Below are positions 1 through 4,369 of a DNA stretch of 4,369 nucleotides, piece by piece. The stretch comes from a virus (Duplodnaviria; Heunggongvirae; Uroviricota; Caudoviricetes). The notes under the pieces were generated by a model that worked only from the letters and a program-made list of their open reading frames with translations, did not search any database and was not told where the DNA came from. Made by a program: the position numbers and the translations under genes. Location of the stretch: the IMG/VR virus record IMGVR_UViG_3300007747_000098; one strand, 5' to 3'. Within the stretch, counting starts at the first letter, position 1. Every line of letters begins with the position of its first letter.

Positions 1-211
1 TATGTTCCCCGCATTCTGCGGCACAGATCAGCTCGGAAAGTTCGTTAAGTGCATCCAGATCATCAGCGTAAAAAGCCACGTCATACAGACTTCGGATTGC
101 TCTGGTCAATGAGTCACGGGCCGCACGTTCAGCATGAGCGCCTGATGCACTTAAGCGAAAATAAAAGCGCTCAAGTGCTTTGTTAATGAGAGTTTTATAT
201 TCTTTGCCCAT
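1..211 (-). CDS. Hypothetical phage early-region protein, N-terminal 70 aa only (C-terminus lies beyond the window start)
   Basis: ATG at 211..209 on the minus strand, open to position 2 with no stop. My translation: MGKEYKTLINKALERFYFRLSASGAHAERAARDSLTRAIRSLYDVAFYADDLDALNELSELICAAECGEH. AAGGG lies 8 nt upstream of the ATG, and the start is 11 nt after the stop of the upstream ORF (223..510), suggesting coupling. Not in the ORF track because it has no stop in the window. Confidence 0.5.
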   Translation of the reverse strand, partial: MGKEYKTLINKALERFYFRLSASGAHAERAARDSLTRAIRSLYDVAFYADDLDALNELSELICAAECGEH

Positions 212-222
212 CGCAACGCCCT

Positions 223-510
223 TTAATCTGCTTTCTGAATTTCAGTTTCTGAATCCATACAGATAATTTCGATATAGGGTTTATCGCCATTAACCTGACG
301 AGCCTTTTCAGCTTCGCTAATGATTTCGCGTACGGTCTGGTACGGAAGTTCCACGATCAGTCGCGTGCCGTTCAGATAAACGTAAGTGGCTTCGGCGGCT
401 CCGTTTTTCCCCGCCGGAGCCACTCCATCAATAGCGGATGCGCGTAATAACAGTTCACCGCGAAAATCAATAAAGCGGATAAATACACCTTGAGTATGGT
501 CTTTAGTCAT
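223..510 (-). CDS. Hypothetical protein, 95 aa
   Basis: Track ORF 223..570 trimmed to the internal ATG at 510 (MTKDHTQGV...), which has an AGGTG SD 5 nt upstream and sits 10 nt after the TAA stop (521-523) of the upstream ORF. The longer 570 start would overlap the upstream ORF by 50 nt. No motif I can recognise. Confidence 0.55.
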   Translation of the reverse strand: MTKDHTQGVFIRFIDFRGELLLRASAIDGVAPAGKNGAAEATYVYLNGTRLIVELPYQTVREIISEAEKARQVNGDKPYIEIICMDSETEIQKAD

Positions 511-520
511 AAAGCACCTG

Positions 521-862
521 TTATAAATCAGCCTGTTTAATAAAACTCTGTCCACGCAGCAGACGATCAACCGTGCGAAGCGCTTCGTATAATGTGAAAT
601 CCTGCCCGAACTGATTGTCGCCGCTGCTCAGAGCAAAAATGCGGTTTCCGGTAAACGGATTGCGCGGGCATTTGTGGACCACGATTCCAGCTTTCTCAAT
701 CAGCCAGGCATGCTCGCCGATTTGTTTTACTGGGTAGCCATCCGGCGTTGCGTGTGTATCACTCAGGCTGTAGCGGATGTTGCTGCGTGATGCACTGGTA
801 GCAAAACGGTTAGCGTGGCGTTCTGCACCATTGCGAAAGCGTGAATTACGTTGCTGTTTCAT
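521..862 (-). CDS. Hypothetical protein, 113 aa, with arginine-rich basic N-terminus
   Basis: Track ORF; ATG at 862..860 with a weak SD. First 30 residues (MKQQRNSRFRNGAERHANRFATSASRSNIRYS) are strongly basic. First gene of an apparent three-gene coupled operon on the minus strand. Function unknown. Confidence 0.5.
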   Translation of the reverse strand: MKQQRNSRFRNGAERHANRFATSASRSNIRYSLSDTHATPDGYPVKQIGEHAWLIEKAGIVVHKCPRNPFTGNRIFALSSGDNQFGQDFTLYEALRTVDRLLRGQSFIKQADL

Positions 863-883
863 GTTAAAGACTCTGTACAGATT

Positions 884-934
884 TAATTATTCCGGCATAG
901 AGGCCGAACTCAAAATATTTGCGATTAAATCGCA
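884..934 (-). promoter_or_regulatory. Predicted sigma70-like promoter plus upstream 15-bp perfect palindrome for the 862..1 operon
   Basis: On the minus strand: -35 TTGAGT (plus 913..908), 16-nt spacer, -10 AATAAT (plus 891..886), about 25 nt upstream of the ATG at 862. Perfect palindrome TGCGATTAAATCGCA at 920-934 sits 6 nt upstream of the -35 (centre near -50). Called by eye only. Confidence 0.3.
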
Positions 935-1114
935 TCGCATTGTTTTCACGTTTTGCGGACTGCTGGTTCATTTTCGTTTGCCTCCGCACATGAGAATTGC
1001 GCCGCTTAAGAGGTAACCGAAGTTAATTGATAGTATTACAATTAACATAAGGTCCAATTTGTCCATGCCACACATAATTACCCTCATTGCAGTAGTTGTG
1101 GGTTGTCAGGTTTC

Positions 1115-1321
1115 TCACCCGATAAACCAGATAACAAACGCTATCAACATCGCCCCAATAGCTGCCGGGAAAAGTCCTTTGGTATAAGCGGCGATATATT
1201 CAATGCTGAGTTCAATAAAGCGTTCTTTATGTCCCGTTAACTTGCGAAACAAATAGATCTCTATTACGCCTATCTCAATAAAAACAAGGGTCAGAATGGC
1301 GCTGATGATATGGCTGGTCAT
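1115..1321 (-). CDS. Small hydrophobic protein, 68 aa, likely two transmembrane segments
   Basis: Track ORF; ATG at 1321 is 6 nt after the cox-like TAG stop (1328-1330), suggesting translational coupling in the early operon. Two hydrophobic stretches (IISAILTLVFIEIGVIEIYLF and LFPAAIGAMLIAFVIWFIG) flank a charged loop (RKLTGHKERFIE). Confidence 0.45.
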   Translation of the reverse strand: MTSHIISAILTLVFIEIGVIEIYLFRKLTGHKERFIELSIEYIAAYTKGLFPAAIGAMLIAFVIWFIG

Positions 1322-1327
1322 TTATGA

Positions 1328-1615
1328 CTAAAGTCCCAGCCACAACAACCATGCGTCGCGGCGTTCTTTCGGTTGCTCAAAAAACGCTTTGCGCATGCCT
1401 TCGTTAAATGCTGGCAGATATACCCAGTTTTCTGATGCACGCGTCTTTACTGAACCTGGTTTCACAAAGTCAATTGTTGGTAGCTTTGCTGCGTCAATCA
1501 TGGTTCTGACTGTGGATTCCTTGCGGCCGATCATCTTGGCGAATAGTTGATATGGCACCGCTTCAAGTGGATATGGTGCTACCTGAATGAACCCCCCAAG
1601 CTCTGATTCGCTCAT
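1328..1615 (-). CDS. cox: Cox-like excisionase / early-operon regulator (P2 Cox family), 95 aa
   Basis: Track ORF; ATG at 1615 with AGGGAG SD 9 nt upstream. It is divergent from the repressor, about 90 aa, and contains motifs I recall from P2 Cox (PYQ-FAK-IG, TVR-MID-KLP, WVYLPA, WL-WLGL). Similarity is from memory, not a search. Confidence 0.75.
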   Translation of the reverse strand: MSESELGGFIQVAPYPLEAVPYQLFAKMIGRKESTVRTMIDAAKLPTIDFVKPGSVKTRASENWVYLPAFNEGMRKAFFEQPKERRDAWLLWLGL

Positions 1616-1728
1616 TGTGGTAATCTCCCTAATTCGTTCGAATGGCTCAAAATGGCTTATATCGGCTTATTTGAGTGTTTTTATATTTGTGCCCGATGTG
1701 GCATGTTGTGATGGAGGATATGCCCGAT
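1616..1728. promoter_or_regulatory. Divergent cox/C intergenic region (candidate lysogeny switch) with phased direct repeats
   Basis: 113 bp between the divergent cox and C starts. Three 7-bp repeats at exact 10-bp phasing (TGGCTCA 1643-1649, TGGCTTA 1653-1659, CGGCTTA 1663-1669). Two copies of a 15-mer with inverted outer arms (TGCCCGATGTGGCAT 1690-1704 and TGCCCGATATGGCAT 1721-1735), 31 bp apart; the second overlaps the C start codon. Confidence 0.5.
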
Positions 1729-2049
1729 ATGGCATCTTTGTCAAGCATGGGTGAAAAATTTCGCCTGATTCGTGAAGCAGAAGGTATGACCCGCCAGGAG
1801 TTTGCGGATTGTGTTGGGCTGCCTTATGGGACGGTAACTAACTATGAGGTGAGGGGGAAGCAAGTAACAGAGGGTGCCTTACTTAAGGTTACGAAACACC
1901 CTAAATTTAAGAAGTATGCTTATTGGTTATCAACAGATGAAACGATGCCGGAGGTCGGGCAAATTTCTCCGGCTCTCTCTCTTGATGGTTCCTGCAATTC
2001 GGAGGGAGATCGCGTTTCAACCGAAACAATCCAAAAATTATCCCGCTGA
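1729..2049 (+). CDS. C: P2 C-type immunity repressor (HTH), about 106 aa
   Basis: Track ORF 1675..2049 starts at a GTG. I prefer the ATG at 1729 (MASLSSMGEKF...) because GGAGGA at 1713-1718 sits 10 nt upstream and the length then matches a ~100-aa C repressor. HTH segment MTRQEFADCVGLPYGTVTNYE; C-terminal GQISPALS resembles P2 C as I recall it. It lies directly upstream of and co-oriented with int. Confidence 0.75.
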   Translation: MASLSSMGEKFRLIREAEGMTRQEFADCVGLPYGTVTNYEVRGKQVTEGALLKVTKHPKFKKYAYWLSTDETMPEVGQISPALSLDGSCNSEGDRVSTETIQKLSR

Positions 2050-2145
2050 GGCCAGAAAACTGGTTAGACCTGCTTTTTGTCTGGTCTGATTATTGCTGGA
2101 AAGAGGCTGGAGAAATTGTAGAGCGGTTCATTGGAGGGCTTCGTA

Positions 2146-3150
2146 ATGTCGATTAAGAAGCTCGAAGATGGTCGTTATTTGCTGGACATCAGGCCGAACG
2201 GACGCAAGGGAAAGCGCGTGCGTAAGGTATTTGACAAAAAATCGGTAGCGGTGGCCACTGAACGCTACATCATGGCGAACGCTGAAAAGCGGGAATATAT
2301 ACAGGGCTACCGTGATCGTCGAACGCTAAATGATTTGCTTGAGTTGTGGTGGATGTATCACGGCCAGCACAGGCGTAAGGCGGAAGAAGACCGAAAACAA
2401 CTGCGCAACATAATCAATGAGCTTGGCGCTGATATGCAGGCTGTGGCTCTTGATAAGCTGAAAATTATCGCGTGGCGTTCTCAAAAGATAGCTGATGGAT
2501 TGAAACCGTCATCTGCTAACAGGTACATGAATCGGTTATCCGGAATGTTTACCGTGCTGAAAAAAATAGGTCTTTGGGATGCAGAACATCCAGTAAGGGG
2601 AATTTCTATTCTTTATGTATCTCCACGAGAAATGGCGTTCCTGTCACAGAAGGAAGTGGCGCTATTGCTCGATACACTGGAGGGCGACTACTGGCGTGTT
2701 GCGCTTTTGTGTTTAAGCACAGGGGCGCGCTGGAGTGAAGCTTGTAAGCTTCGTGGTGAACAGATAGTTCATAACCGTGTAACGTTTCTTGAAACCAAAA
2801 ATGGCCGGAAGAGAACAGTGCCAATTTCGCAGGCAGTTTGTGAGGCGATCAAAACCAGAGAAACAGGCGGCTTGTTTGAGGTGAAGTACCGGGAATTCTG
2901 CCTGGCGCTGAAAAGAGTTAAGCCCGATTTACCAAAAGGCCAGGCTGCACATGTGCTGCGGCATACGTTCGCCAGCCATTTTGTGATGAACGGAGGAAAC
3001 ATTATTGCGCTTCAGAAGATTCTTGGTCACGCAACCATTCAGCAAACAATGGCATATGCGCATTTTGCACCGGATTACCTGCAGGATGCGGTGGCCCTTA
3101 ATCCGCTGAAAGGTGGCGTAAGTGTCCACGCAGTGTCCACGGGGGATTAA
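2146..3150 (+). CDS. int: Tyrosine recombinase / phage integrase, P2 Int-like, 334 aa
   Basis: Track ORF 2131..3150 starts at TTG. ATG at 2146 (MSIKKLEDGRYLLDIRPNGRKGKR...) has GGAGGG 7 nt upstream and matches the P2 Int N-terminus as I recall it (MAIKKLDDGRYEVDIRP). Tyrosine recombinase catalytic signatures are visible: LSTGARWSEA (Arg), HVLRHTFASH (His-x-x-Arg), ILGHATIQQTMAYAHF (Tyr region). Confidence 0.9.
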   Translation: MSIKKLEDGRYLLDIRPNGRKGKRVRKVFDKKSVAVATERYIMANAEKREYIQGYRDRRTLNDLLELWWMYHGQHRRKAEEDRKQLRNIINELGADMQAVALDKLKIIAWRSQKIADGLKPSSANRYMNRLSGMFTVLKKIGLWDAEHPVRGISILYVSPREMAFLSQKEVALLLDTLEGDYWRVALLCLSTGARWSEACKLRGEQIVHNRVTFLETKNGRKRTVPISQAVCEAIKTRETGGLFEVKYREFCLALKRVKPDLPKGQAAHVLRHTFASHFVMNGGNIIALQKILGHATIQQTMAYAHFAPDYLQDAVALNPLKGGVSVHAVSTGD

Positions 3151-3308
3151 TTTTATATAGCCTGAAACGGCTTAAAGGGCGATACTGAATAACAATTTTT
3201 CAGTATTGCCCGTCTAAATGGTTATGTTGTTATCTGTATGATTATTAATGTTTTTTCAGATTAAACAGCAGTTTGCAAATGGGCGTTTGTTGATAAAGGA
3301 GACTTAGA
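3151..3308. other. Candidate prophage attachment-site / phage-host junction region (attL or attR)
   Basis: AT-rich non-coding stretch between the int stop and the host pdxB RBS. Contains an 8-bp inverted repeat with 9-bp spacer (ATACTGAA 3182-3189 / TTCAGTAT 3199-3206), TTTTTCAG repeats and a small dyad AGCC-N6-GGCT (3159-3172). The core cannot be placed without the other prophage end or an empty site. Confidence 0.4.
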
Positions 3309-4369
3309 TTGTCAGAGACTGAAAAAGGGTTAAAAATCCTTGTTGATGAAAATATGCCTTATGCCCGCGACTTATTTAGCCGTTTGGGTGAGGTGACCGC
3401 GGTTCCCGGGCGTCCAATTCCTGTCGCTCAACTGGCAGACGCGGATGCGCTTATGGTGCGTTCGGTCACGAAAGTGAATGAATCTTTGCTGGCAGGAAAA
3501 CCCATTAAATTTGNNNNNNNNNNNNNNNNNNNNNNNNNNNNNNNNNNNNNNNNNNNNNNNNNNNNCAGACGCGGATGCGCTGATGGTGCGTTCGGTCACG
3601 AAAGTGAATGAATCTTTGCTGGCAGGAAAACCCATTAAATTTGTTGGCACTGCCACTGCGGGGACCGACCATGTCGATGAAGCATGGTTGAAGCAGGCGG
3701 GAATTGGTTTTTCCGCTGCACCTGGCTGTAATGCGATTGCGGTGGTGGAATATGTTTTCTCCTCACTACTGATGCTTGCCGAACGCGATGGATTTTCACT
3801 GCACGACCGTACGGTGGGGATCGTGGGCGTTGGTAACGTTGGACGTCGATTGCAGGCGCGACTGGAAGCGTTAGGGATTAAAACATTGCTTTGCGATCCG
3901 CCTCGCGCTGACCGTGGGGATGAGGGTGATTTCCGCTCGCTGGATGAATTAGTTCAGCATGCGGATATTCTGACTTTCCATACGCCACTCTTCAAAGATG
4001 GGCCGTACAAAACGCTGCATCTGGCGGATGAAAAACTGATCCGTAGCCTGAAGCCGGGAGCGATTCTGATTAACGCCTGCCGTGGCGCAGTCGTCGATAA
4101 TACTGCGTTGCTGACCTGCCTGAATGAAGGCCAGAAGTTAAGCGTAGTGCTGGATGTCTGGGAAGGCGAACCGGAACTTAACGTGGAGTTGCTGACAAAA
4201 GTGGATATCGGCACGCCGCATATCGCAGGTTATACCCTGGAAGGTAAAGCACGCGGTACTACGCAAGTGTTTGAAGCCTATAGCAAGTTTATTGGGCATG
4301 AACAGCACGTTGCGCTGGATACATTACTGCCCGCGCCAGAGTTTGGTCGCATTACGCTGCATGGCCCGC
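3309..4369 (+). CDS. pdxB: Erythronate-4-phosphate dehydrogenase PdxB, 3'-partial; reading frame interrupted in this assembly by an N-gap and duplication at 3514-3643
   Basis: Translation before the gap ([62 protein letters not shown]) and after it in frame +1 (…[23 protein letters not shown]…[12 protein letters not shown]…ITLHGP, open to the window end) matches E. coli PdxB as I recall it. Deleting the 130 extra bases restores one continuous frame. Start is either TTG 3309 (AAGGAG SD 3296-3301) or ATG 3354; see findings. Confidence 0.9.
3436..3513 (+). repeat. 78-bp direct duplication of pdxB coding sequence, copy 1 (left gap flank)
   Basis: Copy 1 at 3436-3513 and copy 2 at 3566-3643 are identical over 78 bp except one base (T at 3452 vs G at 3582; CTT vs CTG, both Leu). 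Confidence 0.9.
3514..3565. other. Run of 52 N (scaffold or assembly gap)
   Basis: Literal n characters in the sequence. Together with the 78-bp duplication this adds 130 bases (130 mod 3 = 1), which shifts pdxB from frame 0 to frame 1. Confidence 0.95.
3566..3643 (+). repeat. 78-bp direct duplication of pdxB coding sequence, copy 2 (right gap flank)
   Basis: See copy 1. Consistent with two contig ends that overlap by 78 bp being joined with an N spacer instead of merged. Confidence 0.9.

Follow-up and report, generated by a model that had tools for sequence, protein, structure and literature searches.

A cox–C–int region assigned to the lysogeny module of a P2-type, P88-like prophage in Escherichia coli pdxB

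A 4,369-nucleotide stretch of viral DNA (IMG/VR record IMGVR_UViG_3300007747_000098), referred to here as the window, very probably carries at positions 1328 to 3150 the lysogeny and integration module (cox, C, and int) of a P2-type temperate phage integrated in the pdxB gene of E. coli. The carrier phage belongs to the Peduoviridae and to the genus Xuanwuvirus (P88-like) rather than being P2 itself. Homology, gene order, catalytic residues, repeated sequences, an att core, and the phage context all contribute to this assignment. The module is ordinary and previously described, and nothing at the locus is new. The main use of the finding is as an annotation anchor that assigns the element to the P88-like prophages of the Peduoviridae.

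The cox, C, and int genes

A sequence-only reading of this DNA had proposed a P2-family module of three genes. All three were found at the coordinates it gave, and their products are homologues of the Cox, C, and Int proteins of P2 and Wphi. The cox gene (1328–1615, minus strand) encodes a Cox-family winged-helix protein of 95 amino acids, the C gene (1729–2049, plus strand) a small HTH immunity repressor of the P2 C family with 106 amino acids, and the int gene (2146–3150, plus strand) a P2-family tyrosine integrase of 334 amino acids. The open reading frames have exactly the arrangement claimed, with cox divergent from C and int downstream of C in the same orientation, and the resulting order, att–int–C/cox, is the mirror of the annotated P2 map. 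The same three coding sequences are called by RefSeq in a genome that differs by 2 nt across window positions 1–3513. The BLASTP comparison with P2, 186, and Wphi that had been suggested as a check returned P2 or Wphi as the best characterized relative of each protein.

First, Cox matched Pfam PF10743 (Phage_Cox) with 79.9 bits against a cut-off of 27.5 and PHROG 272 ("Cox-like excisionase and repressor") at 1.5e-38, and its sole PDB match was P2 Cox (4LHF, E = 3.5e-26). It is 56% identical to P2 Cox and 44% to Wphi Cox, with identities of 100% to the protein of P88_4B11 and 97% to that of PhiSM. Its gene is the first of the early operon and is divergent from the repressor gene. The protein is predicted to act both as a repressor of the promoter Pc and as the directionality factor of excision.

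Second, C matched PHROG 147 (E = 2.9e-29), and its sole meaningful PDB match was P2 C (2XCJ/2L49, E = 4.4e-16); the Pfam HTH_3 score of 21.4 bits falls slightly under the cut-off of 23. Identity is 42% to Wphi C, 37% to P2 C, 48% to PhiSM C, and 32% to P88 C. If translation began instead at the ATG at 1747, the protein would have 100 amino acids, as annotated in phage P88_4B11, and C is 100% identical to the P88_4B11 repressor over the 100 amino acids annotated there. It is thus a small (~100 amino acids) C-family repressor, of neither the 186 CI type nor the lambda CI type, and is predicted to repress the early promoter Pe.

Third, int starts 7 nt downstream of a GGAGG, and its product matched the Pfam families Int_N (81.4 bits) and Phage_integrase (81.0 bits). 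Over its full length, Int shares 54% of its residues with Wphi Int, 50% with P2 Int, and 38% with 186 Int, and it is 99.4% and 98.2% identical to the integrases of P88_4B11 and PhiSM, respectively. Tyrosine-recombinase catalytic motifs had been noticed earlier in the translation, and the complete set (R195, K222, H269, R272, H295, and Y304) is indeed present; these R-K-H-R-H-Y columns are invariant in the P2, Wphi, and 186 integrases. The gene lies directly downstream of C and is co-oriented with it, toward att.

Promoters and operator-like repeats

The best promoter-like site of the window in a consensus scan, matched at 10 of 12 positions, is a Pe-like early promoter on the minus strand directed toward cox (1715–1744; –35 TTGACA at 1744–1739, an 18-nt spacer, and –10 TATCCT at 1720–1715). 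Its –35 element is located just within the beginning of the C gene, a position shared with P2 and Wphi. Two operator-like repeats accompany it: O2, TGCCCGATGTGGCAT(GTT), at 1690–1707 just downstream of the –10, and O1, TGCCCGATATGGCAT(CTT), at 1721–1738, which fills the spacer and overlaps the C start codon. They form a repeat family (D1) of 18 nt with 89% identity and a spacing of 31 bp. At the sequence level, two direct repeats of 15–18 nt flanking the Pe –10 reproduce the geometry of the annotated O1/O2 of P2 and of the corresponding Wphi repeats. O1 together with base 1720 reads ATGCC-N6-GGCAT and therefore has internal dyad symmetry. Since this dyad and the 31-bp spacing are unlike P2, the binding of C may differ in detail from that of its P2 counterpart.

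The promoter for the opposite direction is less distinct, and the consensus scan detected none on the plus strand near cox. A weak candidate for Pc at 1637–1663 (plus strand; TTCGAA, 15 nt, TATATC) is suggested by positional analogy, as its position mirrors that of the annotated P2 Pc –35/–10 relative to cox and the cox boxes. The 96-nt spacer between C and int (2050–2145, plus strand) folds as ordinary RNA (z = –0.78), and a promoter and terminator scan found no terminator-like or promoter-like site on its plus strand. This would fit transcription of C and int together from Pc, which we infer by analogy with P2.

Putative Cox-binding sites

Three cox-box-like direct repeats with 10-bp phasing (TTTGAGCCA, TATAAGCCA, and AATAAGCCG, read on the minus strand) occupy positions 1643–1671. 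Their orientation and their distance to the cox ATG are the same as those of the P2 boxes at 25954–25981, and they are kept in PhiSM, whose Cox is nearly the same protein. From their sequence and position, they are predicted to be Cox-binding sites overlapping the expected Pc promoter. The pattern GGCTYAWW, which was picked after the sequence had been seen, has four matches in the window compared to 1.28 expected; three of these start at 1644, 1654, and 1664, and the fourth is just past int. The published P2 cox-box consensus is TTAAA(G/C)NC(A/C) with a spacing of 10–11 bp (PMC3936717), and each of the three phased boxes, a motif chosen post hoc, fits it at 5–7 of 9 positions. When the window was scored for TTAAASNCM, the att arm (3142–3332) showed a weak, ~2-fold enrichment and the switch region no clear one. 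The fourth GGCTYAWW match corresponds to a single cox-box-like site, TTTAAGCCG, at 3168–3176 (minus strand), between the P' arm and the core, where the annotated P2 map has a Cox footprint. This site is weakly supported because the enrichment of the P2 consensus in that arm is so slight.

Integrase arm sites, att core, and the pdxB junction

Two putative P'-arm-type Int-binding sites, each AGTGTCCACG, are located 11 bp apart at 3121–3141 (plus strand; repeat family D6) in the last codons of int. Their sequence is almost the same as that annotated for the P' arm of P2, GTGTCCACACAGTGTCCAC. P2, P88_4B11, and the L001 prophage each have exactly two occurrences of the pattern GTCCACRCANTGWCCAC, one per arm, and a pattern search of 186, Wphi, and the K-12 locus returned none. 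Each att arm therefore has paired arm-type sites, and the P' arm overlaps int at its 3′ end. Downstream of these sites, the region 3145–3312 folds at –44.5 kcal/mol (z = –3.99) and includes a stable hairpin at 3177–3211 (plus strand; inverted repeat I2) with a 13-bp stem, a 9-nt loop, and no U tract. A terminator scan called neither this hairpin nor any other terminator after int.

The att core, AAAATCCTTGTTGATGAAAATA, spans 22 bp at 3333–3354 and was defined by comparing four sequences: the junction in the window, the distal one of the L001 prophage, P88_4B11 attP, and the unoccupied site in K-12. The boundary between prophage and host on the int side is thereby placed within codons 2–8 of pdxB. 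The earlier statement that the integrase points toward the host junction was correct as to orientation; the junction itself lies at this core, 183 bp past the int stop codon, rather than at 3150. The core has the host-type T at 3347, compared to G in attP and in the distal junction, which places strand exchange within 3333–3346. It includes the published 17-bp PhiSM site, ATCCTTGTTGATGAAAA. In the source element, a second copy of the core, AAAATCCTTGTTGAGGAAAATA, would be expected at the flk end of a ~35-kb P2-type gene set.

Phage DNA preceding the core supplies a replacement for the 5′ end of pdxB (3296–3332, plus strand), with a Shine–Dalgarno sequence AAGGAG at 3296–3301, a TTG start at 3309–3311, and seven extra codons (MSETEKGL...). 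RefSeq annotates a 385-amino-acid PdxB from this TTG in L001. The same Shine–Dalgarno and TTG elements were described in 2019 for pdxB with PhiSM by Magaziner et al. [quoted passage not shown] A separate promoter has also been proposed for PhiSM, which here would correspond to a start upstream of 3296. The junction accounts for a phage-derived N-terminal extension of seven codons in PdxB, or for a mis-start by annotation pipelines.

Genomic context and alternative explanations

The window is 98.8% identical at the DNA level to Xuanwuvirus P884B11 and 99.9% identical to a ~35-kb prophage that complete E. coli genomes carry between flk and pdxB. Coverage of the window is 85–100% in another four phage records of Peduoviridae type, and at least 80% of positions 1–3520 is present in 281 of 5426 complete E. 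coli genomes. The 99.9%-identical L001 prophage carries genes for portal, terminase, scaffold, P2-family capsid, gpM/L/X, and holin/endolysin, as well as baseplate V/W/J/I, sheath, tube, E/E', tape measure, ogr, and a gpA-type replication endonuclease. P2-type virion, lysis, ogr, and gpA genes are found both in this prophage and in the genomes of P88_4B11, PhiSM, and P88. The proposed comparison of the flanking prophage with P2-like genomes thus revealed P2-type structural genes in the genomes of near-identical copies; what the window's own prophage holds beyond 4.4 kb (4369 bases) is read from these relatives.

To the left of cox, the early operon continues on the minus strand with a hydrophobic open reading frame of 68 amino acids (1115–1321), which matched PHROG 14475 (function unknown; 3.6e-41), is 69% identical to PhiSM Shae_045, and had no match in Pfam or PADLOC. 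It is followed by open reading frames in common with P88 (1–862), namely DUF4761 (521–862; 231.9 bits), a PHROG 3800 protein (223–510), and DUF4754 (up to 211, cut by the window edge; 154.2 bits). The DNA identity of ~91% to P88 is restricted to window positions 1–841. No P2 gpB homologue is among the annotated genes. Early replication genes and, further in, defence hotspots had been expected on this side. Small early open reading frames followed by gpA are indeed present, but the hotspots were not borne out, as PADLOC gave no matches for three open reading frames of the window or for seven cargo proteins encoded by the most similar complete prophage. The cargo of that relative includes ParM/ParR-like proteins, Hok/Gef, a RES-domain protein, and a VasI-like protein with a zinc-ribbon protein, and Pfam identified only RES, VasI-like, and zinc-ribbon domains among the cargo proteins.

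The alternative that survives best is that the module is intact but resides in a defective (cryptic) P2-like prophage no longer able to replicate, in which it would hold the remnant in place and keep pdxB expressed. We consider this a tenable but not a favored explanation. The gpA gene is annotated as frameshifted in E. coli WP5-S18-ESBL-09, which differs from the window by 2 nt across positions 1–3513, and in AVS0501, these being the two closest complete genomes checked; the module may therefore maintain a defective prophage. In addition, an ash gene is partial in these relatives, and the L001 gpD homologue is shortened to 801 nt compared to 1110 nt in P88_4B11. However, none of the three genes of the module is truncated, and the catalytic residues are preserved. 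Nearly the same module is carried by P88_4B11, PhiR44_2, and PhiSM, whose records were deposited as complete phage genomes, and PhiSM is an active phage. Moreover, the pdxB allele beyond the N run (3514–3565), where the window also has a 78-bp duplication, differs from that of those genomes, so the window may come from another lineage. In any case, this alternative concerns the state of the element and not its type.

A satellite or integrative island (P4-like or PICI-like) with a borrowed P2-type integrase and repressor would also fit the 4.4-kb window taken alone, which has no structural genes. This is very improbable, as the leftward DUF4761, PHROG 3800, and DUF4754 open reading frames are early genes of P88-like phages and every carrier inspected is either a 34–37-kb Peduoviridae genome or a prophage with a complete set of virion genes. 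A switch of the 186 (Eganvirus-like) type, with CI as repressor, Apl as excisionase, and SOS induction through Tum, shares the divergent-gene layout and an integrase 38% identical to that of 186, but its likelihood is negligible, given a repressor of 106 rather than 192 amino acids, a 68-amino-acid open reading frame and DUF4761 in place of a cII-like gene after cox, a Cox that matches Pfam Phage_Cox and P2 Cox, and no detectable similarity to 186 CI or Apl by BLASTP.

Proposed working of the P2-type switch

Promoter use, co-transcription, and the binding of C and Cox are the parts of the P2-type module reading that we infer. In a lysogen, weak Pc next to cox would transcribe C and int rightward, toward att. 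C would bind the direct repeats at 1690–1707 and 1721–1738 that bracket the –10 of leftward Pe, keeping cox and the early and replication genes off. If Pe wins, Cox would bind the phased repeats over Pc (1643–1671) and repress C and int, and Cox together with Int, acting at the arm sites 3121–3141 and the distal arm, would carry out excision at the core. Phage DNA between int and the core also provides the ribosome-binding site and TTG start that leave pdxB translatable. A module of this kind predicts P2-style immunity that is not inducible by the SOS response.

Two further ideas may be considered, which taken jointly we regard as unlikely. First, pdxB in the lysogen may be transcribed mainly by read-through from the Pc–C–int operon, as no canonical terminator and no convincing promoter were found between int and the phage-supplied pdxB start. 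If true, vitamin B6 synthesis would be tied to the lysogenic promoter and would drop when Cox shuts Pc. Second, C may recognize a 16-bp unit with a dyad of its own (ATGCC-N6-GGCAT) that recurs 31 bp away, which, if true, would be a binding mode other than that of P2 C on its non-palindromic direct repeats.

Comparison with related phages

Compared to the phages with the same integration site, the module shows close relationships. Xuanwuvirus P884B11 (Escherichia virus P88_4B11, NC_049391/LR595891) is 98.8% identical over window positions 1–3300 and has the same attP arms and core; apart from the G in attP where the host core has T (3347), it differs by few substitutions. Citrobacter phage PhiSM (Shae_phiSM, OR565851) has the same pdxB site, Shine–Dalgarno sequence, and TTG start, with Int 98% and Cox 97% identical. 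Its C is only 48% identical, and a different repeat (ATCACATxT, compared to TGCCCGATxTGGCAT in the window) occupies the same two operator positions; window positions 1673–1956 are therefore a swapped immunity cassette relative to PhiSM. The repeats and the body of C were replaced jointly while cox and int stay 96–98% identical, as would be expected of an operator and its repressor, and heteroimmunity between the two phages is presumed. This swap is a neat natural case of a repressor and its operator exchanged together, the behavior expected among P2-like phages.

Compared to P2 (AF063097), gene order and orientation are the same, with Cox 56%, C 37%, and Int 50% identical. The two share direct operator-like repeats around the Pe –10 and near-identical arm-type Int sites, including a P' arm inside the 3′ end of int; the cox-box-like repeats of the window are phased at ~10 bp beside cox, like the P2 cox boxes. 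They differ in several respects. First, the operators differ in sequence and length, as P2 has 8-bp repeats at a spacing of 22 bp, compared to 31 bp here, and the repeats of the window, unlike those of P2, have internal dyad symmetry. Second, attB is pdxB here, and the distance from the P' arm to the core is ~90 bp in P2 but ~190 bp here, where it carries the pdxB 5′ replacement. Third, the early operon here has no homologues of gpB and orf78, and the genus is another. Wphi (AY135739) has the closest characterized C (42%) and Int (54%), and its operator repeats around the Pe –10 are 34 bp apart (~three helical turns), compared to 31 bp here; it differs in repeat sequence, in Cox (44%), and in the absence of the P2-type arm-site pattern. 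P88 (NC_026014), the type species of Xuanwuvirus, has the same backbone, early genes (~91%, window positions 1–841), and int–C/cox layout, but its lysogeny module is its own, with Int 44%, C 32%, and Cox 26% identical. The whole lysogeny module is a mosaic unit within the genus Xuanwuvirus.

A P2-type lysogeny module

The three genes that the sequence-only reading had taken for a P2-family lysogeny module are present as open reading frames with identical coordinates. The Cox-family gene cox lies on the minus strand (1328-1615, 95 aa), while the gene for the helix-turn-helix repressor, C (1729-2049, 106 aa), and the integrase gene, int (2146-3150, 334 aa, with GGAGG 7 nt before its ATG), lie on the plus strand. 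In E. coli WP5-S18-ESBL-09, which differs from window 1-3513 at two positions only, both within int, RefSeq names the same three coding sequences "Cox family DNA-binding protein", "helix-turn-helix domain-containing protein", and "phage integrase".

Cox matches Pfam Phage_Cox (79.9 bits; cut-off 27.5) and PHROG 272 ("Cox-like excisionase and repressor"), and its sole relative in the PDB is P2 Cox (4LHF, E=3.5e-26). C matches PHROG 147 (2.9e-29), its sole meaningful PDB relative being the P2 C repressor (2XCJ/2L49, E=4.4e-16), and Int carries the Pfam domains Int_N and Phage_integrase. The three proteins were compared by BLASTP with proteins from the GenBank records of P2, Wphi, and 186. Cox is 56% identical to its P2 counterpart and 44% to that of Wphi, C is 37% and 42% identical, respectively, and Int is 50% identical to P2, 54% to Wphi, and 38% to 186. 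The tyrosine-recombinase catalytic motifs that the sequence-only reading saw in the integrase are in place: R195, K222, H269, R272, H295, and Y304 occupy columns that are invariant in an alignment of four integrases. Because of these identities to P2 and Wphi and the invariant catalytic set, the module is assigned to the P2 type, as first proposed. Regulatory regions like that of 186 are also common among P2-like phages (PMC3448106); this alternative was ruled out, as BLASTP gave no match to 186 CI or Apl.

Phage identity and prophage context

The closest named phage is Xuanwuvirus P884B11, of a genus within Peduoviridae, which is 98.8% identical to window 1-3300 over its full length. It is followed by Escherichia phage PhiR44_2 (97.2%), Citrobacter phage Shae_phiSM (PhiSM; 93.5%, with 83% of this stretch covered), and phage Chuche (89.5%); the match to P88 itself is confined to window 1-841, at about 91%. 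This DNA recurs, at 99.9% identity, in complete E. coli genomes as the right end of a prophage of ~35 kb between flk and pdxB; among 5426 complete genomes, 281 contain 80% or more of window 1-3520. This prophage encodes portal, large terminase, GPO scaffold, P2-family capsid, gpM, head completion, gpX, holin, endolysin, LysB/C-like, tail completion, baseplate V/W/J/I, fibre, sheath, tube, E/E′, tape measure, gpU, and gpD proteins, as well as ogr and a gpA-type replication endonuclease. Since the integrase is of the P2 family and P2-type virion genes are present in the 99.9% identical prophage, neither a non-P2 integrase nor a lack of P2-like structural genes speaks against the assignment; the structural genes were read in relatives, the window itself being 4369 bases. 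The identification is correct and ordinary, and existing descriptions already cover the module, its phage genus, the site of integration, and the rebuilding of the pdxB 5′ end.

Leftward of cox, the order is a 68-aa hydrophobic ORF (PHROG 14475), DUF4761, a PHROG 3800 protein, and DUF4754 by Pfam and PHROG. The 68-aa ORF (1115-1321, minus strand), directly after cox, shares 69% identity with PhiSM Shae_045 and gave no Pfam or PADLOC match; PHROG 14475 is a family of unknown function. It occupies the position of P2 orf78 but is dissimilar in sequence. P88 homology stops at 841 and PhiSM homology is broken between 841 and 1114; the interval 842-1114, whose sole content is a 41-aa ORF (864-989), is an apparent mosaic joint that links the lysogeny module to the conserved early genes.

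Further left in L001, the 99.9% identical prophage locus of a complete genome, come small ORFs, a MarR-type wHTH protein, a partial ash gene, a frameshifted gpA, ParM/ParR-like genes, and then the portal gene. The expectation of early replication genes on this side holds. That of defence hotspots finds no support from known models in this closest relative, as its cargo at the P2-hotspot positions and between ogr and att gave no PADLOC matches; in Pfam, the matches are to RES, VasI-like, and zinc-ribbon domains. This cargo occupies variable positions of the prophage. One group, from ogr to the distal att (L001 7590-10717), codes for Hok/Gef and for VasI/TagO-like, zinc-ribbon, and RES-domain proteins; the other, from gpA to the portal gene (L001 33683-35464), consists of the ParM/ParR-like partition genes and an uncharacterized 135-aa ORF. 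The gpA gene is frameshifted in the two closest complete genomes checked (L001 35541-38364; L009 2490-5313), and the L001 gpD homologue is truncated (11211-12011). The prophage of this lineage may be defective, though its lysogeny module is intact.

Attachment site and the 5′ end of pdxB

The att core was defined by comparing the int-side junction, the L001 distal junction, attP of P884B11, and the empty K-12 flk-pdxB site. It is 22 bp long, AAAATCCTTGTTGA(T/G)GAAAATA, at 3333-3354, inside pdxB codons 2-8. Position 3347 is a host-type T here and G in attP and the distal junction, which places strand exchange within 3333-3346. Two arm-type Int sites, AGTGTCCACG, were found by repeat search at 3121-3141 and are near-identical to the annotated P2 P′ arm; GTCCACRCANTGWCCAC occurs once per arm in P2, P884B11, and the L001 prophage, and nowhere else among the fetched loci. 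As these sites overlap the last int codons, this Int and P2 Int share an SVHxVST tail. In addition, TTGTTGATAAA at 3287-3297 repeats the core segment TTGTTGATGAA (3340-3350), 53 bp away. This copy could serve as another core-type Int site, or it could be left over from the origin of the pdxB 5′ mimic.

The phage DNA from int to the core contains a Shine-Dalgarno sequence (AAGGAG, 3296-3301; the TTGTTGATAAA repeat lies just 5′ of it) and a TTG start at 3309, in frame with pdxB and adding seven residues. This arrangement is already published: PhiSM brings the same signals and integrates 6 bp into pdxB, at the 17-bp site ATCCTTGTTGATGAAAA, and MG1655(PhiSM) grows on minimal medium (PMC6456863). 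The −10 element proposed for PhiSM, TAAAGG (PMC6456863), overlaps the Shine-Dalgarno sequence. Annotation by PGAP is inconsistent (window 3296-3354; L001 42860-44017; L009 9854-10966), with pdxB of 385 aa from the phage TTG in one genome and 370 aa from an internal ATG (window 3354) in another.

Neither a convincing promoter nor a canonical terminator was evident from scanning and folding of the interval from int to the TTG, so read-through from the lysogenic promoter, Pc, is a possible source of pdxB mRNA. The 96-nt C-int spacer folds unremarkably and its plus strand has no terminator-like or promoter-like site by scan; we infer that C and int are co-transcribed. Just after int is a stable hairpin (3177-3211; 13-bp stem, no U tract), and the fold of 3145-3312 has z = −3.99. 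The hairpin could bind a protein, affect RNA stability, or weakly terminate the C-int transcript. Another strong, GC-rich hairpin with T runs on either side (AAAACGCCCGTTTTCACGGGCGTTTT) lies just beyond the P arm in the distal att arm (L001 7540-7585), ~350 bp downstream of int in the circular phage. Because integration parts the two, read-through of int and pdxB might differ between circular phage and prophage.

Within pdxB, a 52-N run (3514-3565, inside 3436-3643) separates 78-bp duplicates (3436-3513 and 3566-3643) that differ only at 3582. The sequence left of the run differs from WP5-S18-ESBL-09 at 2 of 3513 positions; on its right, identity is only 95.8% against this genome and 97.3% against K-12, the mismatches being evenly spread. 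Two overlapping contigs, possibly of different alleles or lineages, appear to have been joined here in scaffolding; the run could also mark a recombination breakpoint just inside pdxB.

The switch region and its comparison with known systems

In the switch region (1616-1728), three cox-box-like repeats in 10-bp phasing, TTTGAGCCA, TATAAGCCA, and AATAAGCCG, adjoin cox on the minus strand (1643-1671). The P2 cox box is TTAAA(G/C)NC(A/C) at 10-11 bp spacing (PMC3936717), and the repeats here share the orientation and distance to the cox ATG of the P2 boxes at 25954-25981. The P2 consensus is barely enriched in window scoring. GGCTYAWW, a pattern derived after viewing the sequence, has 4 matches in the window (1.28 expected), the fourth directly after int, the site of a Cox footprint in P2. 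The resemblance of these predicted Cox sites to P2 boxes is suggestive only. The promoter scan did not find Pc; a candidate is placed at about 1637-1663 by analogy.

The strongest sigma-70-like site of the window in that scan lies on the minus strand (−35 TTGACA, 1744-1739; 18 nt; −10 TATCCT, 1720-1715). It reads toward cox and is therefore taken as the equivalent of the early promoter, Pe. A repeat search found the direct repeats TGCCCGAT(G/A)TGGCAT at 1690-1707 and 1721-1738, 31 bp apart, the latter filling the Pe spacer and the former just downstream of the −10. C proteins of P2-like phages bind a pair of direct repeats of variable sequence, length, spacing, and position, spaced 22 bp in P2 and 34 bp in Wphi (PMC1904263). 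The geometry here is that of annotated P2 O1/O2, and also of the Wphi repeats.

Homology to PhiSM runs through 1672 and resumes at 1957, 1673-1956 (the operators, Pe, and most of C) having diverged. The C proteins are 48% identical, compared with 97% for Cox and 98% for Int, and the two repeat positions are occupied in PhiSM by another sequence, ATCACATxT, likewise with 31-bp spacing. On sequence comparison, 1673-1956 is an apparent immunity cassette swap relative to PhiSM, in which repressor body and repeats were exchanged together, as a repressor/operator pair predicts; this joint exchange supports the operator assignment of the repeats. Unlike the P2 half-sites, each repeat here has an internal dyad symmetry, ATGCC-N6-GGCAT.
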